This document shows positions 4,687 through 64,000 of a DNA stretch of 64,000 nucleotides, one piece after another (position 1 is the first letter of the stretch; every line of letters begins with the position of its first letter). The stretch lies in the IMG/VR virus record IMGVR_UViG_3300027977_000027, positions 9,021 through 73,020 of that record; one strand, 5' to 3'. Position numbers and translations under genes: made by a program. This DNA comes from a virus. The notes beneath the pieces were generated by a model that was not told the DNA's origin, searched no databases, and saw only the letters and a program-made list of their open reading frames with translations.

Positions 4687-5667
4687 ATGTTTAGAAAAGA
4701 CTATTACGAAATACTTGGCGTAACAAAAGAAGCTTCAGCTGAAGAAATAAAGAAAGCTTATAGGGATTTGGCAAAGAAATGGCACCCTGACAAAAACCAT
4801 AACAATGCAGAAGCTGAAGAAAAGTTTAAAGAAATATCTGAAGCGTATGAAACATTATCAGATACGGTTAAAAAACACAAATACGATAATAATGACCGTT
4901 TTTCTGGTTTTAATTTTGATTTCTCAAGCATGGGTCGTCAAAGACCTATGAGAGTTGGGGAAAATATTAAGTTAAATTTAAAACTTACATTGGAAGAAAT
5001 ATTTTCTGGTGTTAAAAAATCATACAAATATAAAAGAAAAGATAGTTGTTCCTCATGCGATGGTCATGGCGGTAGTGATTCTCAAACTTGTCCAAGCTGT
5101 AACGGCACTGGAGCCGTTGTTCAAATATTTAACACACCTATAGGTCAAATTAGACAAGCCATGGAGTGTCCAACTTGCAATGGCTCTGGTCAAACGTATA
5201 AGGATAAATGTAACGTATGTAATGGTGAAAGTGTAAAATTGGTTGAAGAAACGATTGAGCTAGAGATACCATATGGCGTTGCTGATGGGGCTACATTTGT
5301 CATGGGTGGCAAAGGTAATGCAATTAAAAGTGGTAGACACGGTGATTTATATTTTGTGGTAAATGAGTTGCCACACCATAGGTTTGTTAGAGATGGAAAC
5401 AATTTAAAAATTAATTTAAAGCTATCGTACCCACAACTAGTATTGGGTGATAAGGTTGCAGTTGAAACAATTGATGGTAACAAAATTAGAGTTAATATAC
5501 CAGAGTACAGCCAATTAGATTCTAATTTAAAAGTTGTTGGTAAAGGAATGACTGAATTTAGAAGTGGTAATCGTGGTGATATGATAATAAATTTAGGGAT
5601 AACAATACCTAAGAAGATTGATGATGAGACTAAAGAACTCTTGGAAAAATTAAAGACTAAAATTTAA
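4687..5667 (+). CDS. dnaJ: DnaJ chaperone
   Basis: J domain with HPD, four CxxCxGxG-type repeats, C-terminal substrate-binding domain. Confidence 0.95.
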
Positions 5668-5742
5668 TATGCTACTTGCATGTCTCAAAATTATGCAGTA
5701 GATTTGCAACAAGAATAACAAAAAAAATTAAAAACAAAATTT

Positions 5743-6177
5743 ATGGCTAAGTACGAAGAACCTTTTGAGGACACACAATCACTATTTAACGAAGTTATTG
5801 AAACAACTGGGTTAAACAACTACATGAACATTAATGTTCTTGCTGATAACAAAGCAAAAGACATTTTTAAAGTTAACAAATCTAATGAACTTCTTAAGTA
5901 CAGAACTGGTGACGATGTTAACATTATTTTAAATGAAAGTATTTTTGACAAATTAACTAACGAACAGAAACGAATCGTTGTTGAGGAAGCGATTGCTTAT
6001 ATCTCTTTTGATAGTGAAAAGGATAAAGTAATCATCACCAAACCAGACTTTATAGCTCACAGCGGTATTTTGCGTAAACACACCTTCAACACTGTTGAGG
6101 TTGTAAGAGAATCTGTTAAAACTCTTTATCAAGCTCAAGAACAAGAAGAAGAAGAAAACGTACAAACAACAAATTAA
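5743..6177 (+). CDS. Hypothetical phage protein (possible metallopeptidase-like fold)
   Basis: ORF with IILNE..FD.L...Q...KPDF pattern; no HExxH. Confidence 0.45.
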   Translation: MAKYEEPFEDTQSLFNEVIETTGLNNYMNINVLADNKAKDIFKVNKSNELLKYRTGDDVNIILNESIFDKLTNEQKRIVVEEAIAYISFDSEKDKVIITKPDFIAHSGILRKHTFNTVEVVRESVKTLYQAQEQEEEENVQTTN

Positions 6178-7513: not shown

Positions 7514-7870
7514 GGGGATATAAAGGTATTGACTGAATATAGTCGTAATTGGTAAGCATGTAGTGCTAGATGGAAGCACTTTAATCTCGCTATTAACACT
7601 TTTAGATGGCAACGATTTTGTTGTATCCGAAAATTTCCTTACCGAAGCTGCTTGCAGTTTCGCTGGAGAGCTTGCTGTAGCCTAATATAGCTGATAGTGA
7701 TAATTCACTTCATCGTGGTATGTTCCACGGCATGATGGTAGACCATTAGGGTCTCTTGATTTCCTTCACAAATAATCAAGATATTTTGTTTCGTTAGAAA
7801 ATGAGACTAAACATGTAGAAAGTCTTTCAAGAGTATTCAACACATGGGTTCGATTCCCATTATCTCCACC
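7514..7870 (+). ncRNA. ssrA: tmRNA
   Basis: 5' GGGGATA...GGTATTGAC; 3' GGTTCGATTCCC-ATTATCTCCACC with G3:U70; tag frame 7608..7685 GNDFVVSENFLTEAACSFAGELAVA*. Confidence 0.9.
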
Positions 7871-7917
7871 GTTGACTTTTTTGTACCTTGCCGTATATTT
7901 ATAATAAAAATAGATAT

Positions 7918-8745
7918 ATGGCAAGAAAAGAAAAAACGATACATTACTTATATAAAACAACTTGTTTAATAACTGGTAGGTGGTATGTAGGGATGCACAG
8001 TACATGTAACATGGATGATGGTTATATGGGTAGTGGAAAACGATTACGACATAGTATACGTAAGTATGGTGTTGATAATCATGTTAAAGAAATATTAGAG
8101 TTCTTTGATAATAGAGAAGACTTAGCAAAACGTGAAACAGAAGTTGTTAATTACAAGTTGATTAAAGAAGAGTTTTGTATGAATTTAACAACTGGTGGTT
8201 TAGGTGCTGGTTTTATGGATGAAGAACATATGTTAAAATGTTCTAAAGCTGGTAATAAAGCTTTTAAAGAAAAATTATTAAATGATGAAGTTTTTCGAGA
8301 TAAGTTTATAAAAACAAAAAGCGATTTTTCAAAAAAAGCTATGATTGATGGAAGACTTAAATCAATTAATAAATCTTATGATTGGACTGGTAAAAAACAT
8401 TCAGACCAAACTAAGCAAAGAATCTCTGAATTAAAAATAGGGACTGGAACTGGTGAAACAAATAGTCAATACGGTACATGTTGGATTACAAAAGATGGTG
8501 TAAATAAAAAAATAAAAAAAGAAGATATTGAGACCTATCTAAACGAAGGGTGGGTTAAAGGAAGATACGCTAATATAAAAGGTGAGTTAGTTAAAAATAG
8601 TAAATTATCAAATGATGATGTTATTAAAATAAAAGAAATGTTAGATAAGAAAGAATTATCACAAAGTAAAATTAGTAAAATTTTTAACGTTCACCAAGAA
8701 ACTATAAGTAAAATTAAAAGATGTTTAATATATAAAGATATTTAA
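7918..8745 (+). CDS. GIY-YIG (Seg-like) homing endonuclease with NUMOD3 and HTH
   Basis: YLYKTT...WYVGMH...YMGSG; GKKHSDQTKQRIS; C-terminal HTH. Confidence 0.85.
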   Translation: MARKEKTIHYLYKTTCLITGRWYVGMHSTCNMDDGYMGSGKRLRHSIRKYGVDNHVKEILEFFDNREDLAKRETEVVNYKLIKEEFCMNLTTGGLGAGFMDEEHMLKCSKAGNKAFKEKLLNDEVFRDKFIKTKSDFSKKAMIDGRLKSINKSYDWTGKKHSDQTKQRISELKIGTGTGETNSQYGTCWITKDGVNKKIKKEDIETYLNEGWVKGRYANIKGELVKNSKLSNDDVIKIKEMLDKKELSQSKISKIFNVHQETISKIKRCLIYKDI

Positions 8746-8874
8746 TATTCTATAAACGATTCATTTATTAAACAAATATCACCAGATTTACATCCGATAC
8801 TTTATGCCACTGGGTGTAAAATAAAAACCCCCAGTAAATCGCTTTATTGGGGGTAATTTTGGTGTCCTTAACAC

Positions 8875-8973
8875 TTATTTACTAGGTGTTGGAGGAGTAG
8901 TTGTGGTTGTTGTTGTTGTTGTTTGGGTTGGGTTCGGCTTACCACATCCGCATCCGTTACTAACTGAGTTCAT
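8875..8973 (-). CDS. 32-aa GCGCG / Thr-rich peptide
   Basis: MNSVSNGCGCGKPNPTQTTTTTTTTTPPTPSK; upstream TATTTATA motif and downstream hairpin. Confidence 0.45.
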   Translation of the reverse strand: MNSVSNGCGCGKPNPTQTTTTTTTTTPPTPSK

Positions 8974-9049
8974 GTTCTTTGAATTTTATTGTGTGTTATT
9001 GTTGTATATAAATACTTGACTTAATAAAAATAAGACCTTATATTTTATT

Positions 9050-9265
9050 ATGTTTAAAACAAAGTATACGGTATCATTATTAGATAGTAAATGGAGTGTT
9101 GTTAAAAATAATGTGAAACTTTATGCACTACCAAGAAAAGATGAATATATTTTCTTTGATGGGTTGTATTATGAGGTTTTAAATGTTGTTCATTCTGTTG
9201 ATAATAAACATATAATTTATGTCATTATCAATGAAGTGCCTTACCAACATAAAACAAAAAATTAA
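9050..9265 (+). CDS. Hypothetical protein
   Basis: 71 aa ORF. Confidence 0.6.
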   Translation: MFKTKYTVSLLDSKWSVVKNNVKLYALPRKDEYIFFDGLYYEVLNVVHSVDNKHIIYVIINEVPYQHKTKN

Positions 9266-9357
9266 AATTTTTTTTTGATTTTACTTGACAACTGATGATT
9301 TTTTTCGTACCTTTGCATATATATTACTAAAGCGTTCATTAACATAAATTATCCAAA

Positions 9358-9593
9358 AAGATGGGTTCTGCAAACGAACTTAAAACTACAAATTGAGCAC
9401 AAAAAGTATGTAGGTCTTTTTAAAGTTCAGCTACTACAATAGGCTTGGCAACAGGACTAGTTTGTAGGAGTAACTTTAAGCTAAAACTACCATGGCGTAA
9501 GTCCATGTAAAAAAATACTTCATGACGGAGGTCATGTCAAAAAACTGCCAGGTAAACGGGAGTCCTGTAAAATAAATACGAACAGCCATCTTG
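9358..9593 (+). ncRNA. Candidate Y-RNA-like ncRNA, copy 2 (long)
   Basis: Terminal stem aagatgg/ccatctt with TTCTGCAA; inner helix acaggact(9451)/agtcctgt(9561); hairpins catgg/ccatg and catgac/gtcatg. Confidence 0.55.
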
Positions 9594-9601
9594 GGATAAA
9601 T

Positions 9602-9671
9602 AGAGGAATCGTCTAAGGAAAGACACCACCCGAATGGGGTGTTGATATGAGTGCAAGGCTCATTTCCCCTA
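9602..9671 (+). ncRNA. tRNA-like cloverleaf with non-canonical loops
   Basis: Acceptor agaggaa/ttcccct, D stem gtct/agac, T stem atgag/ctcat with loop TGCAAGG, anticodon loop CGAATGG. Confidence 0.55.
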
Positions 9672-9730
9672 CTAAAAAGAATCGAAACGTAATCCTTGAA
9701 ACACAAGTTGTTTCTTTTCTTAACTTATAT

Positions 9731-9805
9731 TGCGGGGTAGAGCAGTGGTAGCTCGCTAGGCTCATAACCTAGAGGTAGGTGGTTCGATTCCATCCCCCGC
9801 TACCA
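9731..9805 (+). tRNA. tRNA-Met(CAT), initiator-like
   Basis: Cloverleaf, loop CTCATAA, 1:72 mismatch, encoded CCA. Confidence 0.92.
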
Positions 9806-9809
9806 AAAA

Positions 9810-9867
9810 AGAATGGATTCAGCAATTTAAAAAAATTTTTTATGGAAAAAAAAACAAAACCATTCTG
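9810..9867 (+). ncRNA. Candidate Y-RNA-like ncRNA, copy 3 (minimal)
   Basis: Terminal stem agaatgg/ccattct with TTCAGCAA and an A/T-rich loop. Confidence 0.5.
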
Positions 9868-9877
9868 TAACTAACAC

Positions 9878-9907
9878 AAACCCCACTTATGTGGGGTTTT
9901 CTTTTTT
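9878..9907 (+). terminator. Intrinsic terminator closing the ncRNA operon
   Basis: aaaccccac-ttat-gtggggtttt. Confidence 0.8.
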
Positions 9908-10034
9908 ATACAAATTTTAAATTAATTTTTTTTAATGTTTTTATTAATTTTACTATACAATGGTTGTAAGTTAAAAATAAGTTCGTGCCAATAGTTGTTT
10001 ATTTCTGATTTTATTAGTATTTTTGTATAAAAAC

Positions 10035-10658
10035 ATGAGAAAAAAAATAATTGGTTTATCTGGAAAAATAGGTAGTGGAAAAGATACCTTTGCTGAATTA
10101 TTATCTAAACAATTACAAGATAAAGTTGAAAGACATGCTTTGGCTGACAAGTTAAGATTGATAACTGAGATTGTTAGTGGTGTTAGAATGACAACAACAC
10201 ATGAAGTGAATAAACCGTTTTGTAATGAAATACGTAACTACACACAAGACCAAAAAAACATAGTTATTAAACAATTTAATAAGACTATTGGGGAAACATT
10301 ACAACTAGTCGGTACCGAATTATTTAGAGATAATTACGATACTGATATTTGGGTTAAATCTTTATTCAATCATGAGTTAGAAAAAAAATTAAGTGATGGT
10401 AAAATAATTGTTATTCCAGATGTAAGATTTATAAATGAGGCTGATTATATAAGTAAAGAAGGTGGGTATTTAATCAGGTTAGAAGGTGACCCAATGGATG
10501 TTAGAAAAAATAGTTTACGTGATTTAAACCACGTTTCTGAAACAAATTTAGATATATATACAAATTTTGACAAAATCATTTACAATGATAAAAAAGATAT
10601 TAATCATTTAAAAAATATTGTTAATGATTTAATAATTGAATTATCGTTAAATATTTAA
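10035..10658 (+). CDS. Deoxynucleoside monophosphate kinase
   Basis: GLSGKIGSGKDT P-loop, LQLVGTE, IPDVRF.NE, H.SE. Confidence 0.85.
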   Translation: MRKKIIGLSGKIGSGKDTFAELLSKQLQDKVERHALADKLRLITEIVSGVRMTTTHEVNKPFCNEIRNYTQDQKNIVIKQFNKTIGETLQLVGTELFRDNYDTDIWVKSLFNHELEKKLSDGKIIVIPDVRFINEADYISKEGGYLIRLEGDPMDVRKNSLRDLNHVSETNLDIYTNFDKIIYNDKKDINHLKNIVNDLIIELSLNI

Positions 10659-10702
10659 AAATTAAAATATTTTTAATACCTTTGTAAAAATATTTATTGA
10701 TT

Positions 10703-11281
10703 ATGAAAGATAATATCAAACAAATTCTTAGAGAAGGACTTATTCGTGAAGAACGTATCAAGTTTGATTTACGCATACCTAGTGATATACAAGAAATAAA
10801 AGACGTGTTTAAAAAGAACGGATTTAAATTGTATGTTGTTGGTGGTGCTGTACGTGATGCACTTTTAAATAAGACACCCAAAGACTTTGATTTGGCTACT
10901 GATGCAGTTCCAGATAAGGTTGAAGAAATAATGGCCAAGGCTGGATTCAAAACCCTTCCAACAGGCAAGGCGTTTGGGGTTATAAACGTATTTACCAGTG
11001 AAGGTGAATACGAAATTGCAACTTTTAGGTCTGATGAAACTTCTGGTAGAAATCCAGAAGTTAAATTAGGAGCAACAATAGAATCGGATGCTGCTAGAAG
11101 AGATTTACGAATTAATGCATTATATTATGATTTAGATACTAATGAAATAATTGATTTAGTTGGTGGGCTTGATGATTTAAAGAATGGTGAAATTAATATG
11201 GTTGGAAACGCACAAAAACGTTTTGAAGAAGACCCACTTAGAATTTTACGTTTTTTTAGGTTTTTTTCTAGATTTAACTAA
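10703..11281 (+). CDS. cca: CCA-adding / poly(A) polymerase family nucleotidyltransferase, N-terminal fragment
   Basis: VGGAVRD, DFDLAT, EIATFR, DAARRDLRINAL, RFEEDPLRILR; stops right after this motif. Confidence 0.9.
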   Translation: MKDNIKQILREGLIREERIKFDLRIPSDIQEIKDVFKKNGFKLYVVGGAVRDALLNKTPKDFDLATDAVPDKVEEIMAKAGFKTLPTGKAFGVINVFTSEGEYEIATFRSDETSGRNPEVKLGATIESDAARRDLRINALYYDLDTNEIIDLVGGLDDLKNGEINMVGNAQKRFEEDPLRILRFFRFFSRFN

Positions 11282-11330
11282 CTGAAGATACGTTTAGGGT
11301 TTTTCGTTATATTTATAGTAAAAGAATATT

Positions 11331-12200
11331 ATGCAAAAACTATGGAAAAAAGAAGAAATTGATTTATTGGTAAGATTATATGAAATTGATGGTTTATCTG
11401 TTACTGAATTATTTCCACTTTTCAACGAAAAATATAATAGGCCAATTATTGGTTTACAAGTTAAAATTGGTAGACTCAAACTAAGACATAGTAAAGAACA
11501 AATTAAAGCTATAAAGTCAAGATTAAATAGTGGTGAATTAAATGGTATGTTTGGTAAGAAATCACCTATGAAAGGGTTAACTTCAGAAACATCGGAAATA
11601 GTTAGAATTAAATCAGATAAAACATCTAAAACCAGAAAAGAAATGTTTAAAAATGGTGAGCTACAACCATTAACTGGTTCAACAAACCCTATGTATGGTT
11701 CTATATCTTGGAACAATGGTTTAAATAAATACATGGATAAACGTATATTTAATTATGGTGAAAAGATATCTAAAATTAAAAAAAAAGAGTGGGAAAATAA
11801 AACTGAGAATGAAAAAAGGGAAACAATACTTAGGTTAAATAACGCTATGATTCAAACAAAAAAACCGACTAAAATTGAAGATAAAATAGAAAACTTTTTA
11901 AAAGAAAATGAGGTAAAATATATTAAGAATAAACGTTACGATTTATTTATATTTGATTTCTACTTATTAGAATTTAATTTTGTGATTGAATGTGATGGTG
12001 ATTATTGGCACGCAAACCCTTTATTTTATAATGGTAAAAAATTAACTGATGCACAAATAAAAAATATAGAAAGAGATAAAAGAAAAAATTTGTTATTAGA
12101 ATCAAACTTAATTGATTTTGTTAGGTTTTGGGAGTTTGATATTAAAAATAATTTTGAAATAATAAAAAAAACAATATGGGAGAAATTACAAAAGAAATAG
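11331..12200 (+). CDS. Vsr-like/DUF559 endonuclease splitting the cca gene
   Basis: NGMFGK and NPMYG repeats; FDFY...IECDGDYWHANP...VRFWE. Confidence 0.8.
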   Translation: MQKLWKKEEIDLLVRLYEIDGLSVTELFPLFNEKYNRPIIGLQVKIGRLKLRHSKEQIKAIKSRLNSGELNGMFGKKSPMKGLTSETSEIVRIKSDKTSKTRKEMFKNGELQPLTGSTNPMYGSISWNNGLNKYMDKRIFNYGEKISKIKKKEWENKTENEKRETILRLNNAMIQTKKPTKIEDKIENFLKENEVKYIKNKRYDLFIFDFYLLEFNFVIECDGDYWHANPLFYNGKKLTDAQIKNIERDKRKNLLLESNLIDFVRFWEFDIKNNFEIIKKTIWEKLQKK

Positions 12201-14007: not shown

Positions 14008-14080
14008 GGTGTTAGTAGCTCAGAGGCAGAGCGCTGGTTTGTGAAGCCAGAGGTCGGGATTTCGAAATTCCTCTAACACC
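14008..14080 (+). tRNA. tRNA-His(GTG)
   Basis: G-1, loop TTGTGAA, C73. Confidence 0.9.
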
Positions 14081-14205
14081 CTCTTAAAATTTAACCGTCA
14101 CCAAACAATGGTTTGGACTCCATGAGTGGGATGCCAGTGAATATGATAATAAACTGGGGCGGTTTAGGGATTGGGAAAATTAAAATAACATTGCGCCATA
14201 CCGAG

Positions 14206-14271
14206 CGAACCTGATAAATTCGATATTCGTAGCTGGTGTTGAAAACGTGAGTTCGAGTCTCACCGTGCCTA
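14206..14271 (+). pseudogene. tRNA-Ile(GAT)-like 3' two-thirds; no 5' acceptor strand found
   Basis: cgaac-CTGATAA-attcg, variable-arm hairpin, canonical T arm gtgag-TTCGAGT-ctcac. Confidence 0.55.
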
Positions 14272-14279
14272 CTAAACAT

Positions 14280-14361
14280 TCATAGGTAGCCTAGAGGCCA
14301 GGCAGCAGACTGTTAATCTGCGGAAGCAATTCCTACGTGGGTTCGATTCCCACCCTGTGAG
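14280..14361 (+). tRNA. tRNA-Asn(GTT) with long variable arm
   Basis: gcaga-CTGTTAA-tctgc, variable arm ggaa-gcaa-ttcc, G73. Confidence 0.85.
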
Positions 14362-14371
14362 CAAATAATAT

Positions 14372-14458
14372 GGTGTGGTGGCAGAGAGGTCGATTTCGAT
14401 AGACTCATATTCTCTTTCCTTACCAAAGGACACACAGATTCGAATCCTGTCCACGTTA
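14372..14458 (+). tRNA. tRNA with CAT anticodon (Met or Ile2), long variable arm, degenerate
   Basis: Loop CTCATAT, variable arm tcctt/aagga, several G:U pairs and mismatches. Confidence 0.6.
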
Positions 14459-14464
14459 TAACAT

Positions 14465-14537
14465 GGTTCCATAGTGTAACGGAAACACACTTCGCTACGA
14501 ACGAAGAGATTTGGGGGTTCGAATCCCTCTGGAACTA
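14465..14537 (+). tRNA. tRNA-Arg(ACG)
   Basis: cttcg-CTACGAA-cgaag cloverleaf. Confidence 0.92.
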
Positions 14538-14545
14538 CAAAATAT

Positions 14546-14617
14546 GGTCTCGGAGCATGATGGATATGCGACATCGTTCTAAGGTGTTCTATGTGGGTTC
14601 GACTCCCATCGAGACTA
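14546..14617 (+). tRNA. tRNA-Arg(TCT)
   Basis: acatc-GTTCTAA-ggtgt; acceptor ggtctcg/cgagact. Confidence 0.8.
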
Positions 14618-33379: not shown

Positions 33380-33452
33380 GGGACGGTAGCTCAGTTGGTA
33401 GAGCAGTGGCCTGAAGAGCCACGTGTCGCTGGTTCGATTCCAGCCCGTCCCA
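33380..33452 (+). tRNA. tRNA-Phe(GAA)
   Basis: gtggc-CTGAAGA-gccac cloverleaf. Confidence 0.95.
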
Positions 33453-33457
33453 CGCAT

Positions 33458-33529
33458 GGCACCATCGAATAGTGGTTAGTTCGTCTGGTTTTCAACCAGA
33501 AAACAGGGGTTCAATTCCCCTTGGTGCTA
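33458..33529 (+). tRNA. tRNA-Glu(TTC)
   Basis: tctgg-TTTTCAA-ccaga. Confidence 0.92.
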
Positions 33530-33577
33530 CAAAATGTTACGGTAGACTAGCCTCTAGTCAACGTTGGGTCCTTATAT

Positions 33578-33654
33578 GGAATATTAGTAGAGTTGGTTAC
33601 AATATCGCACTGTCACTGCGAAGGTCACGGGTTCGAATCCCGTATATTCCGCCA
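33578..33654 (+). tRNA. tRNA-Asp(GTC)
   Basis: tcgca-CTGTCAC-tgcga, G73, encoded CCA. Confidence 0.93.
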
Positions 33655-33746
33655 AAAATGGTAATCGTTATTTTTGTGGTGGCCACCACGAATAATGAAA
33701 ATCCATACTAAGTAACGAATGATGGCCATCAATAGTTATTTAGTTA

Positions 33747-33817
33747 GAGGATGTAGTTTAATTGGTAAAACTCTGGCGTGGAGCCAGAAGTTGTGGGTTC
33801 GAACCCCATCATCTTCC
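33747..33817 (+). tRNA. tRNA-like gene with shortened anticodon loop (His-like, or Pro TGG)
   Basis: gaggatg/catcttc, ctggc-GTGGA-gccag, C73. Confidence 0.6.
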
Positions 33818-57251: not shown

Positions 57252-57322
57252 TTTTTCTTACAAAATACAAAAAAATTTAGTACCTTTGCATTTCATCTTT
57301 ATTCTAATCGTAAAACTAATAA

Positions 57323-58219
57323 ATGAAAAATCTAGTAATTAACAACAGAGTTACCAATCGTGAAAACGTTTCCTTCAACCAATATCTTAAGGATATTGCC
57401 TCAATTGATGTGCTTACTCCTGAACAAGAGACTCTTTTAGCAGAGAAAGCTAGCAAAGGAGATAAAAAAGCTATTGATGAATTGGTGAGTAGAAATCTTA
57501 GGTTTGTTGTTAGTGTTGCGAAACAATACGCCACACCACAAAATCCTCTAGAAGATTTGGTTAATGAAGGCAACATAGGCCTTATCATAGCTGCTGAAAA
57601 ATTTAACCCAAGTATGGGCTTTAAATTCATTTCTTATGCTGTGTGGTGGGTTCGTAAAATAATAATGGAACACCTTTCCAAACATGGTCGTCTGGTTAGG
57701 TTACCATCCAATAAGATAAATAGCTTATCTAAATTAGATAAGGAAATATCTATTTTGGAACAAAAATTTGGGCGCACTGTAACAGTACAAGAAGCTATTG
57801 ATATGATGGGTGATGCTGAAAAATTTGATACAACTTCTTTCAAAAAGAAAGTAGAAGAATATAAATTTTTGGATATTTTATCATCTTATCATATGGACTC
57901 ATTAGACCGTGATATTAGCGGTGATGATGGTAATGGCACCATATTATCGGACACGATTTCTGATGAAAGTATCTTTAAGTCCGCTGACCATGACATTAAC
58001 CATGCCGATATTAAAAATGAGTTGAATAAGGTATTAGACACTCTTAAACCTAGAGATAAGCGTGTTATGGTAGCTTTGTTCGGTCTAGATGGTGATTTCC
58101 CAAGAACGCTAAAAGATGTTGGTGAAGAAATGGGTGTAACACGTGAAATGGTTAGGCAGATAAAAGAAAAATGTTTAGGTAAAATTCGTGTGCAAATGGA
58201 AAACTATGAAATAATTTAA
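57323..58219 (+). CDS. Sigma70-family (RpoD-like) sigma factor
   Basis: NLRFVVSVAKQY, DLVNEGNIGL, FKFISYAVWW, region 4 HTH. Confidence 0.92.
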   Translation: MKNLVINNRVTNRENVSFNQYLKDIASIDVLTPEQETLLAEKASKGDKKAIDELVSRNLRFVVSVAKQYATPQNPLEDLVNEGNIGLIIAAEKFNPSMGFKFISYAVWWVRKIIMEHLSKHGRLVRLPSNKINSLSKLDKEISILEQKFGRTVTVQEAIDMMGDAEKFDTTSFKKKVEEYKFLDILSSYHMDSLDRDISGDDGNGTILSDTISDESIFKSADHDINHADIKNELNKVLDTLKPRDKRVMVALFGLDGDFPRTLKDVGEEMGVTREMVRQIKEKCLGKIRVQMENYEII

Positions 58220-58969: not shown

Positions 58970-59157
58970 CATCAAACCCCAGATTAGCTGGGGTTTTTCA
59001 TTTTATATATGTGTTACACTTGGTTATGTCATAAGACACGCTTTTAGTTTAACACAAAGGTATAAAATATTTTCTAGAAAAAAAAATATTTTTTTGACAA
59101 AAAGATTTGGTAGTTCCAAAAAATTTTACTACCTTTGCCCTATCTAAACCAATTAAT

Positions 59158-59745: not shown

Positions 59746-59796
59746 TTTTTGGAGATATCAAATTAATTATGTACCTTTGTATTAAATTTAAACAAA

Positions 59797-61346: not shown

Positions 61347-61884
61347 AGCTAATGTACAATGATAAATCAAATAAATATCACGATTGGATGTACATCTAGT
61401 TTTTTTATTTGGAAATGTCAAAACTTATTCGTACCTTTGTAAAAAAATAAATTATGGAATTTATTAAACATATATTCGGTTTCTGTGGTGAAACCCATCC
61501 ATCATTAATTAATTTGTTAATTTTTGGTGGACTACCTTTTGTATCATTTTTTTATTTTTTAAAAAACAATATTATAAATTTGTTTTTTAAATTAAAAACG
61601 GTTATATTTGAATTAATCAAATAATTTCACTATGAAAAAAAAATTGTTTTTGTTGGGATTAATGACCTACACTACAGGAATTTCAATTTTGGTAATTTAC
61701 TTTTTAATGACAAATTGCACAAGACCTGTCTGTAATGATATAAATGCTGTAGGTTGTATTTGTAAAAATCAAAAAACAATATTTCTTCCTGGAGTACCAA
61801 GACAAACTTCATTAGAACCTTATTGTATTGATTCTTGTAAAAATGAAGGTGGATTTTTAAATTATATTTGTACAAAATAAACAA

Positions 61885-62412
61885 ATGAGTTACATTGTAG
61901 TAGATGTGGAAGCCGATGGAGCAATACCACACAAGTATTCGATGGTTTGTTTCGGTGCCGTAATAGTTGAACCGACACTTACCAAAACATTTTATGGAAA
62001 AACAAAACCAATTTCAAATGAATGGGTTGCTGATGCTTTAGCTGTATCAGGTTTTAGCCGTGAAGAACACGAAAAGTTTGACGACCCTAAAAAGGTTATG
62101 GAAAACTTTGCCGAATGGATTGCTAAAAATTCAAACGGTAAACCAATTTTTATAAGTGATAACCCTGCTTTTGATTGGCAATGGATTAATTACTATTTCC
62201 ATAGCTATTTAGGGAAAAACCCATTTGGTTTTTCTGCGAGGCGTATAGGTGATTTGTATTGCGGAATGAAAATGGATACTGGATTAAATTCAGAGTGGAA
62301 AAGATTGTACCGAAAAACAACACACGACCACAACCCTGTTAATGATGCAAAAGGTAACGCAGAAGCATTATTAGCAATGAAGAAAATGGGTTTGAAATTA
62401 CCAACGTATTAA
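61885..62412 (+). CDS. DEDDh 3'-5' exonuclease-like protein
   Basis: VDVEADG, FDW, H.P..DA. Confidence 0.85.
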   Translation: MSYIVVDVEADGAIPHKYSMVCFGAVIVEPTLTKTFYGKTKPISNEWVADALAVSGFSREEHEKFDDPKKVMENFAEWIAKNSNGKPIFISDNPAFDWQWINYYFHSYLGKNPFGFSARRIGDLYCGMKMDTGLNSEWKRLYRKTTHDHNPVNDAKGNAEALLAMKKMGLKLPTY

Positions 62413-62481
62413 AAGAGCGTGGGCAGATTGTTTCTTTTTCGTTCTCATAAAAGTTCAATCGAAGCACGTCTACCCACTTTC

Positions 62482-62573
62482 ATATAACGGTTGCGTATAT
62501 GAGAGGTACGCCACCTAAAAACTAAAATAAATGTGAACCCGCTTATTGGCGTATCTCATATACGTTGTTAGGC
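62482..62573 (+). repeat. attC-like site 1
   Basis: ATATAAC...cgtatatgaga/tctcatatacg inverted repeat...GTTAGGC. Confidence 0.7.
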
Positions 62574-62588
62574 ACAGTACGGTAAATT

Positions 62589-62792
62589 ATGAAAATATCT
62601 GAATTAATTGCAAAACTTAAAGACATCAAAAACAAAGAGGGTGATTTGAATGTATGTGTTTCAGAATCACACGAATATTGGGGTAGCGTAGAGTCGCATC
62701 TTAGTGAGTATAACATGTATGTTAGTGAACACGCACAACCCGATGGCCCAAAATCAGGTAAGTCTGAAAAGTCTGTTGTTTTTCAGTACTAG
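62589..62792 (+). CDS. Cassette gene, hypothetical
   Basis: Single ORF between attC-like sites. Confidence 0.65.
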   Translation: MKISELIAKLKDIKNKEGDLNVCVSESHEYWGSVESHLSEYNMYVSEHAQPDGPKSGKSEKSVVFQY

Positions 62793-62803
62793 TGTAGTAT
62801 TGT

Positions 62804-62920
62804 ACATAACGTTTCTCAGCTTTTCGAACACAAAACTTCATTAGAATTACAAATTTTAAAATTTAGATAAAAATGTCAATAGAAGAACAAAACGGCAATT
62901 TTGCCAAACCCGTGTTAGCG
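62804..62920 (+). repeat. attC-like site 2 (degenerate)
   Basis: ACATAAC...GTTAGCG; weak internal symmetry. Confidence 0.55.
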
Positions 62921-63466
62921 GTTCGTTTTATTTCGGAGAACATAATCGTAGACAGATTTCCTGTTTCAAAAGAGATAAAAGAGGGTGGCAAACATAATGA
63001 ATGCCAAGTAATAATTAATGTATCAGATGAATTTTACTTGGGTAATTCAGAAGAAATAATGAAAGAAGGAAAACTTAACTACTATTTCCCAATGGGTGAA
63101 AGTGGTGACTTGATGGGTTTAAATTCAATGTTTGGAGTATTACAAGTATTGCACCAAATCTATACTTGGAATCCTGAATGGAAAGTATTACTTCATTGTC
63201 AAGCAGGTAAAAATAGAAGTCCAACGATAAAAGCCTGTTTCTACTATATGATGTTAGGTGAGCATGAGCCTGATGTACTTGACAATAATAATGAAGTAAA
63301 ATATCGTAATAGACTTTTAGTAAACTGTGAAAGAAACCATTTACCACCATTAAAACAGACTGAATTGTTTTTGTCAAAATGCAAAGAAGCGTTTGATAAC
63401 CCCGAAAAGTTTTTCGGTGGGATGTTTGACTGGGTAATGTCGGAGTCTGGATGCTCTTTAAAATGA
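62873..63466 (+). CDS. Cassette gene, dual-specificity/PTP-like phosphatase
   Basis: HCQAGKNRS (CX5R). Confidence 0.75.
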   Translation: MSIEEQNGNFAKPVLAVRFISENIIVDRFPVSKEIKEGGKHNECQVIINVSDEFYLGNSEEIMKEGKLNYYFPMGESGDLMGLNSMFGVLQVLHQIYTWNPEWKVLLHCQAGKNRSPTIKACFYYMMLGEHEPDVLDNNNEVKYRNRLLVNCERNHLPPLKQTELFLSKCKEAFDNPEKFFGGMFDWVMSESGCSLK

Positions 63467-63467
63467 C

Positions 63468-63561
63468 CGATAACGGTTGGGTGTATGAGAAGGTTTGCTT
63501 GTAGAATCTTTCAAATTAGCACAACTGTTAATAGCAAACTTTCTTATACACCTTGTTAGCA
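63468..63561 (+). repeat. attC-like site 3
   Basis: CGATAAC...ggtgtatgagaaggtttgct/agcaaacttttcttatacacc...GTTAGCA. Confidence 0.7.
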
Positions 63562-63630
63562 CCAGTACGGTTTATTTAAGGTAAACTTGATTAATTGAAT
63601 AATTATTAGTATATTTGTAAAAAAATGATT

Positions 63631-63879
63631 ATGGAAAAATATATAAACAAAATGATTGAAGATGGGTTTAAATTAGCCCAAAAACACGAACAAATTAGAG
63701 AAGAAATGTTTGATGATGGTTATTTACCACAAGAAATGAAAGAAGAATTGGTTAAACTAAAACAAGATTTTGAAGAACAACGTTTAAAGGATGAAAAATA
63801 TATAGAGGATAATAAACATAGAAAAATTGTCGGGTATAATCCAGAAAACTTTATGCCTATCTTCGAAGACGAAAAGTAG
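63631..63879 (+). CDS. Cassette gene, hypothetical
   Basis: Single ORF between attC-like sites. Confidence 0.6.
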   Translation: MEKYINKMIEDGFKLAQKHEQIREEMFDDGYLPQEMKEELVKLKQDFEEQRLKDEKYIEDNKHRKIVGYNPENFMPIFEDEK

Positions 63880-63885
63880 TATTGG

Positions 63886-63939
63886 TGCTAACGTCTAATG
63901 ATAAACAATCGTTTTAATGTTGTTTATCATTTGTTAGGT
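63886..63939 (+). repeat. attC-like site 4
   Basis: TGCTAAC...aatgataaacaa/ttgtttatcatt...GTTAGGT. Confidence 0.7.
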
Positions 63940-64000
63940 TTTGTTAAATTATTGTTTTACAAATTAAAAATAAAAAATATGGAAGATATAAATTGGAATA

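Follow-up and report, generated by a model that had tools for sequence, protein, structure and literature searches.

The window considered here, that is, the whole stretch of 64,000 nucleotides under analysis, is the last 64 kb of an IMG/VR virus record (IMGVR_UViG_3300027977_000027) of 73,020 nt rated 21% complete, and the end of the record is window position 64000. This DNA is AT-rich (about 30% GC), the public runs containing it are lake and freshwater metagenomes, and its carrier is probably a large uncultivated freshwater phage of Bacteroidota. The part from 62485 to 64000 contains four TAAC...GTTAG boundary pairs with single open reading frames (ORFs) of the plus strand in between, which form a candidate array of integron-like gene cassettes (Table 1). 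A preliminary description of the same DNA had mentioned four imperfect palindromes, each pair enclosing one ORF: the four pairs of bounds, the single ORFs and the hairpins of sites S1, S3 and S4 were confirmed, whereas S2 is not a palindrome.

Folded sites and cassettes of the window

Table 1. Sites, cassettes and upstream units in the window. The R flank follows a site and the L flank precedes the next one; R1 is a covariance model.
Feature	Position	Strand	Description
S1	62485-62570	+	folded core, type B, 86 nt; R1 64.2 bits on +, 21.5 on -
Cassette 1 body	62571-62806	+	R flank GGCACAGTACGG; 67-aa ORF 62589-62792; L flank ending GTAGTATTGTACA
S2	62807-62917	+	decayed core, type D, 111 nt (intact copies 119-120 nt); 5' arm shortened and mutated
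Cassette 2	S2 to 63470	+	S2, 197-aa ORF 62873-63466 (dual-specificity-phosphatase-like), L flank to 63470
S3	63471-63558	+	folded core, type A, 88 nt, most frequent type; R1 105.8 bits on +, 39.0 on -
Cassette 3 body	63559-63888	+	R flank GCACCAGTACGG; TAnnTTTG at 63610; 84-aa ORF 63625-63879; L flank GTAGTATTGGTGC
S4	63889-63936	+	short folded core, type C, 48 nt; R1 18.5 bits
Cassette 4 start	63937-64000	+	ATG at 63979; truncated by contig end
Decayed half-site	61378-61447	+	5' arm resembling core 5' arm (TCAC for TAAC); promoter-like loop; 3' arm absent
Former exonuclease cassette	61842-62484	+	175-aa DEDD-type exonuclease ORF 61885-62412; no folded site ahead

The hairpins are more stable on the plus strand than on the minus strand. 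Thus, S1 folds at -16.2 kcal/mol versus -15.1 (z -2.8), with one of 200 shuffled sequences as stable, and no shuffle out of 200 reaches the stability of S3 (-20.5 versus -16.6 kcal/mol; z -5.2) or S4 (-11.4 versus -8.8 kcal/mol; z -6.3). S2 forms no hairpin, as 173 of its 200 shuffles fold equally well (z +1.0). Intact cores of type D, with arms CGGGCTTGGCGAAGTTGCCG and CGGCAATTTTGCCAAACCCG, are found in the related loci L244 and L248-L257, where the loop and 3' arm are as in S2 and encode a leader peptide. By its sequence, S2 is a decayed copy of such a core; cassettes 1 and 2 have probably become inseparable.

The 67-aa ORF of cassette 1 has no family match in a Pfam scan, and the 197-aa ORF of cassette 2 matches DSPc (23.7 bits) and PTP-SAK (21.2 bits) weakly, in both cases under the curated cut-offs. 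The ORF of cassette 3 has relatives in three paralogous cassettes of the phage record G002, with 61, 55 and 40% identity. The phosphatase-like gene also shows a mosaic patch, window 63233-63367 (135 nt) being exchanged for 126 other letters in contigs of three other runs; L244 carries the same divergent patch as these variant contigs.

No further site of the S1-S4 family is present elsewhere in the 73-kb record. Cores near-identical to S3 are present in 72 viral loci, and the 48-nt core of S4 recurs in arrays of the records G001, G002, G003 and G005. A 20-nt pattern common to S1 and S3, used as the seed of the family search, matches 72 viral contig stretches, which yield 73 distinct cores. The consensus hairpin deduced from these cores includes 24 pairs, 8 of them with compensatory change between core types. 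At its foot, TAACG is paired to TGTTA; beyond this come a bulge of 3 nt (GTT) in the 5' arm and a stem of 19 bp closed by a variable loop. On the plus strand, 4 positions are fixed as G.T pairs in 68-73 of the 73 cores. A scan based on structure only (TAAC, GTTA and a 12-bp stem) retrieved 488 sites from 900,979 nt versus 53 from shuffled sequence, with a dominant geometry of four bases after TAAC and one before GTTA and with length classes of 48, 79, 87-89 and 113-129 nt. The TAAC/GTTA ends, the imperfect hairpin and the unpaired bases expected of attC-type sites are thus all found in the family, S2 failing in this respect. Five records of 310-465 kb, with a rated completeness of 98-100%, have their sites grouped in arrays on one strand.

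Cassette ends and the recombining edge

The 16 nt following a site can be compared with the 16 nt preceding the next one, flanks of which site detection made no use. In 239 distinct cassettes from about 100 related loci, these two ends pair at a mean of 11.4 of 16 positions when G.T is allowed and 9.6 by Watson-Crick pairing, and 38% of the cassettes reach 13. The two flanks of a same hairpin (n=327) and flank pairs taken at random (n=5000) both give a mean of 8.0, with 2% reaching 13. The flank consensus is ATTG-nnn-A/TAAC ... GTTA/T-nnn-CAGT, with a T.G wobble. The earlier proposal that the start of each cassette is complementary to its own end therefore holds for the family. In the window, cassettes 1, 2 and 3 score 11, 9 and 14 of 16 in an ungapped 16-nt comparison allowing G.T, the low value of cassette 2 being due to an indel, and the flanks across S1-S4 score 8, 6, 5 and 9. 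Judged alone against the family background, only cassette 3 is significant, and the case for own-end pairing rests on the family and not on the window cassettes alone. A match of the cassette start with its own end, and not with the flank across the hairpin, would be explained if the flanks extend the hairpin once the circle closes: in a circular unit, the paired L and R flanks would lengthen it.

Paired ends could also evoke transposition, either of the cores, as miniature transposable elements, or of whole cassettes, as small transposons with inverted repeats at their ends, by a transposase encoded elsewhere. Cores that are highly conserved between variable flanks, and inverted repeats of at least 16 nt at cassette ends, fit this scheme. 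It is nevertheless very improbable, since the sites stand in same-strand arrays with one ORF between them and are never dispersed, no target-site duplication logic was seen, and the constant neighbour of the arrays is a tyrosine recombinase, not a transposase. Readings as miniature inverted-repeat transposable elements or as homing elements were rejected, no dispersed copies being present.

The polarity of the unit was read from a statistic on flank classes and from one comparison between loci, which replace nucleotide-level homologues of cassettes, few and mixed (41 pairs, including 29 with both neighbours the same and 4 with both different). Between sites sharing the R flank and differing in the L flank, core identity has a mean of 0.74, and 31% of the pairs are at 0.9 or more (n=359), whereas sites sharing the L flank and differing in the R flank have a mean of 0.55 with 4% at that level (n=184), as do pairs differing in both flanks, which constitute the background (0.56; 3%). 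The second line of evidence is the recurrence of the cassette 2 unit in L244/G007 at 84% identity and between other neighbours. The two copies resemble each other over the whole unit, starting at the TAACG of its type D core and continuing across the ORF up to the L flank AAAATGACCG, and diverge before the first TAACG and beyond the next one. Given the association of a core with the ORF after it and the breaks at TAACG, the unit would comprise the site, its R flank, the ORF and the L flank, with a crossover at or within TAACG, at the left edge.

From these comparisons, the folded site appears to move together with the ORF that follows it, and it is the TAAC edge that fits the crossover, not a G/TT at the GTTA edge. 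The preliminary description had recognized the signature of cassettes recombined at G/TT; the cassette-type units with pairing ends stand, and the place of the crossover has to be moved. Read on the coding strand, the crossover would be TAA/C at the 5' foot of the hairpin, and the coding strand would be the reactive one, in agreement with its better fold. A TAA/C at the 5' foot of a hairpin is the geometry of the bottom strand of integron attC sites.

The same polarity bears on the phosphatase-like ORF. S2 does contain its start codon (62873) and first 15 codons, as had been noticed, but this N-terminus would come from the cassette's own site and not from a neighbour's, because the folded site travels with the downstream ORF. 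In ten other contigs, the 15-residue leader provided by the S2 loop and 3' arm stands at the start of different ORFs. Of four full-length homologues of the phosphatase, two match only from residue 16 or 31 and thus have other N-termini. In L248-L257, the type D leader peptide (window 62873-62917) includes a start codon and about 15 conserved residues ending in ..NGNFAKPVL, fused to different ORFs.

Recombinase, attI-like site and cassette exchange in relatives

Matches to PF00589 occur in three of the five complete records, always just beyond the last site. With the 268-aa protein of G005 as a tblastn query, same-strand homologues were detected directly past the last site in 15 distinct contigs, and on the opposite strand in one further contig. 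This protein is composed of Phage_int_SAM_4 and Phage_integrase domains, and the catalytic residues R, K, H, R, H and Y are invariant across all 13 aligned recombinases. It remains under every curated NCBIfam cut-off, scoring 178.8 versus 220 for XerA and 156.7 versus 265, in two stretches, for the integron integrase model TIGR02249. Its best solved relative is the Pyrococcus XerA. The alignment with VchIntIA (2a3v) is in two pieces and has 33 residues where IntI has 81, about 48 fewer, so that the protein is without the IntI-specific insert. Its close relatives are labelled XerD in public data and none is labelled integron integrase. At least 120 clusters of this recombinase occur in metagenomes at 79% identity or more. 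In 50,697 isolate phage records searched by tblastn, the highest identity is 37%, with integrases of Cellulophaga and Polaribacter phages.

An attI-like site accompanies the recombinase: in 14 of 14 loci, the last L flank is followed by TAAC and a non-hairpin sequence of the TAT.ATATAT type, 40-50 nt before the recombinase start. Some relatives show particular arrangements. In G001, a complete 362-kb phage counted among the 15 contigs above, a recombinase remnant corresponding to the first 113 residues lies beside the array (L106 3099-3437), and an attI-like TAAC-TACTATATAT site is still present ahead of it. In G003, a 465-kb phage, the recombinase is split, residues 9-169 and 237-268 being about 830 nt apart (L102 7328-8733; G003:C1 ~13.3-14.7 kb), which could reflect an insertion, an intron or a broken gene. 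In G005 (L101 2329-3024), the recombinase is directly followed, outside the array, by a gene for a SIR2-family NAD-dependent deacylase (Pfam SIR2, 117.7 bits).

The array had been expected to extend past 64000, and it does so in the 97-kb record G006, of which positions 1-112 are 100% identical to window 63889-64000. Beyond this overlap, G006 has four more sites, an attI-like site and, about 5 kb on, a recombinase (4964-5758). G006 is likely, on this short overlap, to be the continuation of the window array, and both contigs probably broke at the repeated 48-nt core. Assemblies of such phages would break at arrays because a contig ends inside a repeated core. The window's record thus has clustered attC-type sites without a nearby integrase, in the manner of the clusters of attC sites lacking an integron integrase (CALINs), but its contig stops inside the array and the overlapping contig reaches a recombinase.

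Cassette order was compared among relatives, as suggested earlier: the same cassettes have different neighbours from one relative to another, and the breakpoints coincide with the sites. The last cassette of L060 has the core, the 5' leader and the L flank of cassette 3 and an unrelated ORF. A 12,350-nt contig from another study tracks the window to 63474, the TAAC of S3, and then diverges. The segment 60000-64000 was compared with public contigs from four metagenome runs (freshwater, soil and unlabelled); the joints 63474>63889, 63558>63889 and 62917>63881 were not counted as excision junctions, as their sides are 24-28 nt and the letters between are unknown. The proposal that accessory genes are shuffled by attC-type recombination is therefore borne out insofar as the same cassettes stand between different neighbours, with the reservation that the enzyme of the relatives is Xer-like and without the IntI insert.

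The family is not confined to phages. Homologous recombinases with 40-48% identity are widespread in Bacteroidota genomes, and 19 of 80 kept host loci have at least one site within 6 kb, including those of Flavobacterium terrisoli, F. limicola, F. cheonanense and a Desulfitobacterium chromosome. In these host loci, own-end pairing attains 15 of 16 and the recombinase is convergent with the array; the same site logic is found beside homologous recombinases in Flavobacterium isolates. The locus L181 of the Desulfitobacterium sp. Sab5 chromosome (7726-12156) displays five TAACG...TGTTA hairpins of 69-73 nt, pairing up to 15/16 and a recombinase with 43% identity. As this array lies in a Firmicute, the family reaches beyond Bacteroidota. 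The tyrosine recombinase whose search had been advised is thus absent from the window's record and present beside arrays in related phages and in some host genomes.

Taken together, the region 62485-64000 is quite probably the recombinase-distal part of an integron-like cassette array, which is the best explanation of the whole. The mobile unit would be a folded site (TAACG, 3-nt bulge, long stem with fixed G.T wobbles, variable loop, TGTTA) with an R flank, usually one small ORF, and an L flank. The 268-aa recombinase, a member of the Xer/IntI superfamily, would exchange strands at TAA/C of the coding strand folded as a hairpin and, like IntI on the attC bottom strand, would insert new circles beside its own gene and excise old ones. 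The array is real, cassette-like and, as far as sequences indicate, integron-like in its working; recombination would be catalyzed by the Xer-like enzyme through single-strand exchange and circular intermediates.

Several observations weigh against this interpretation. An intact recombinase is missing in two of the five complete relatives, and the 73-kb record, only 21% complete, has neither an attI-like site nor a recombinase, which extends the earlier remark that the window lacks an integrase. The link between the window and G006 consists of 112 identical bases, 48 of which belong to the repeated core. The linkage between a core and its downstream cassette is only statistical (median identity 0.85), and two of the four nucleotide-homologous pairs checked by hand pointed to the opposite core linkage. 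Cassette and site counts are not independent events, since a single core pattern served to gather the loci, many of which are related. Neither a circle nor an excision junction nor any enzyme activity was observed, public contigs giving ambiguous joints, and G.T wobbles on the strand of mRNA sense would suit a role in RNA equally.

This last point is at the heart of another explanation, in which the hairpins would serve at the RNA level or as regulatory DNA, as terminators, sites of processing or carriers of promoters, and genes would be swapped by homologous recombination from one repeated hairpin to another. The PeSL motifs of T4-type phages would be the model for it: these are reportedly promoter-terminator motifs for which gene swapping by homologous recombination, without a recombinase, has been proposed. 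Like the sites described here, they are repeated between small accessory genes of large phages and tied to gene gain, loss and replacement. The better fold of the mRNA-sense strand with its fixed, G.U-compatible wobbles, the promoter-like sequence or the start codon and leader peptide of some loops, and near-identical cores across phages, which would permit homologous exchange, all go in this direction. However, homologous exchange does not predict ends that pair with each other while flanks across a hairpin pair at random, and it leaves unexplained the conserved non-hairpin TAAC site and the recombinase at the array end. The same cassette is flanked by different core types with breaks at TAACG, and own-end pairing, TAAC breakpoints and a recombinase neighbour point to site-specific exchange, unlike PeSL motifs. 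Moreover, the motif TAnnTTTG, presumably a promoter, lies near the start (first 110 nt) in 38 of 233 cassettes versus 26 and 25 in controls and is thus not enriched: the PeSL hallmark of a promoter and a stem-loop at each module border was not found, and the view that cassettes as a rule come with a promoter of their own was given up for that reason. Roles in RNA or regulation combined with homologous swapping are therefore considered unlikely.

Known systems, cargo and upstream units

Integrons are the textbook gene-capture device of bacteria, and their integrase is thought to require a special insert to handle folded single-stranded sites. The phage arrays resemble them by their same-strand disposition of mostly single-ORF cassettes, by imperfect-palindrome sites ending in AAC...GTT, the near-identical repeats of sedentary chromosomal integrons being the nearest, and by the pairing of the first bases of a cassette with its last ones. 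A recombinase of the Xer/IntI superfamily, a non-hairpin primary site adjoining its gene (here in relatives), a very diverse cargo mostly of unknown function and older units decayed at the far end are further common traits. In contrast, the phage recombinase has 268 residues, is without the IntI-specific insert and scores under the NCBIfam integron-integrase cut-off. The phage site precedes its ORF, with a crossover that fits TAA/C on the coding strand, whereas attC follows the ORF, recombines at G/TT and leaves the ORF on the non-folding strand. Flank pairing extends over 16 nt or more in phages versus 7 in integrons, and a 3-nt bulge of the 5' arm with fixed G.T wobbles replaces the usual extrahelical bases. 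Finally, some phage sites encode a start codon and a leader peptide, and the carrier is a large phage of lytic type. The array thus fails two defining tests of an integron, namely, the IntI insert and a site placed after the ORF with a G/TT crossover.

These differences also bear on the simplest alternative, according to which the cassettes are ordinary bacterial ones (a CALIN) taken from a host integron and moved, if at all, by a host IntI at G/TT. The R boxes do have the integron form (..TAAC / GTTAG..), and the record has no recombinase. In addition, the main text of Qi et al. 2023 (PMC9892861) reports 17 CALINs in phages and the recombination by IntI1 of phage attC sites, one of them from Polaribacter phage P12002L. 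This phage holds two sites of the window's family around a methylase gene, which may differ from the sites tested by these authors. On the other side, the site stands ahead of its ORF and not after it, and the arrays of relatives end at a recombinase and an attI-like site of their own, with an enzyme at 156.7 versus 265 bits and about 48 residues short at the IntI insert. The 20-nt pattern of types A and B was found in only 20 records of 185,579 species genomes, all of them metagenome-assembled genomes or uncultured contigs of scattered phyla, 3 being chance matches inside coding sequence. A host-integron origin is consequently judged improbable. By blastn, the type A core has no match in 50,697 phage records, and a cultured carrier of these core types was not found.

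The CALINs described in the main text of PMC9892861 are similar to the present arrays as attC-like clusters without integrase in virulent phages, with a cargo including DNA methylases. They were read there as parts of bacterial integrons and assayed with IntI1; that main text does not contain the word 'Xer', uses 'tyrosine recombinase' for IntI only, and describes no phage recombinase, attI-like site or reversed polarity. In the literature outside subscription journals and supplements, no description was found of a phage Xer-like recombinase with hairpin-site arrays, of the attI-like site or of the polarity. Phage attC clusters are therefore already known, whereas the recombinase, the attI-like site and the mirrored polarity are apparently new.

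Xer-dependent elements offer another parallel. XerCD uses the folded single-stranded attP of the CTX phage, and pdif modules are small gene modules bounded by repeated sites. These elements and the arrays proposed here have in common a recombinase of Xer type that works either on a single folded strand or on repeats placed around modules, but the phage arrays have many hairpin types and a dedicated recombinase gene at the array end, and no 28-bp dif-like site, for which no dedicated search was made, was noticed in them.

With a confidence little above even, large Bacteroidota phages and some of their hosts may possess a gene-capture platform of their own, related to the integron as a sister or as a forerunner, in which a plain Xer-like enzyme acts on folded single-stranded sites of the coding strand that stand ahead of genes and may donate promoters, start codons and leader peptides. 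It looks like a widespread second version of the integron, adopted by large phages of virulent type with a simpler enzyme and a mirrored polarity. If this is true, cassette capture through hairpin sites is possible without the IntI insert, and viruses thereby stock counter-defence and other accessory genes. If active, the system would account for the turnover of small accessory genes in these phages, be a test case for the evolution of IntI from Xer, and provide a compact recombinase-and-site pair for experiments.

The cargo was examined in 273 cassettes, with a median length of 335 nt. The longest ORF is on the array strand in 263 of them and starts inside the site in 89. The cassette ORFs, 236 of which are distinct, fall into 208 clusters, and a comparison of 150 representatives with Pfam gave few matches, to 17 families with one or two members each. 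These comprise DNA methylase, RNA ligase, HAD and phosphatase domains of RNA-repair proteins, ADP-ribosyltransferase, GNAT, PTH2 and YopX; a counter-defence role of this cargo is a guess.

Upstream of S1, two worn units extend the array. The decayed half-site lies immediately upstream of a 56-aa ORF (61454-61624), and the window sequence at 61375-61447 has 92% identity with L005:1720-1791, where it makes up the loop of an intact core bounded by TAAC...GTTA. In other public runs also, the loop of this half-site sits between core arms (loose ends 61401 and 61448). A promoter-like repeat (TTTGG..N..GTACCTTTGTA or TATATTTGTAAAAAAA) is found ahead of several genes of the window, at 57256-57288, 59105-59137, 59748-59791, 61407-61451 and 63598-63626, and is the loop sequence of some cores in other phages.

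The second worn unit contains an exonuclease ORF which matches the Rv2179c-like exoribonuclease family of Pfam (35.4 bits). Its R-flank-like start (61842-61857) and L flank (62469-62484) pair at 11 of 16 positions at offset 0 and at 5-7 at neighbouring offsets. In L108, an 80% identical gene is a full cassette flanked by two cores, and the last 80 nt of the unit (62411-62490) share 92.5% identity with the end of an L057 cassette whose ORF is unrelated. Among 56 loci with exonuclease relatives, L108 has the only full cassette, L111 and L134 have a same-strand upstream site, and 50 have none within the fetched flanks. The window array is thus partly decayed, S2 being unable to fold and the exonuclease unit being without its site. 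Its far end looks old and worn, back to about 61378, while the part on the recombinase side looks intact, as it should if the attI-like site is where new cassettes come in.

As for the remainder of the window, a search at the Rfam gathering score matched 11 tRNAs and one tmRNA only. The tmRNA is full-length (76.5 bits; 7514-7871), and the 11 tRNA genes of the same phage fragment are spread over 9731-36714, with clusters at 14009-14617 and 33380-33817. Together with the AT-richness, these genes fit a fragment of a very large phage. From its sequence alone, a 298-aa ORF at 57323-58219 looks like a factor of the sigma-70 family.

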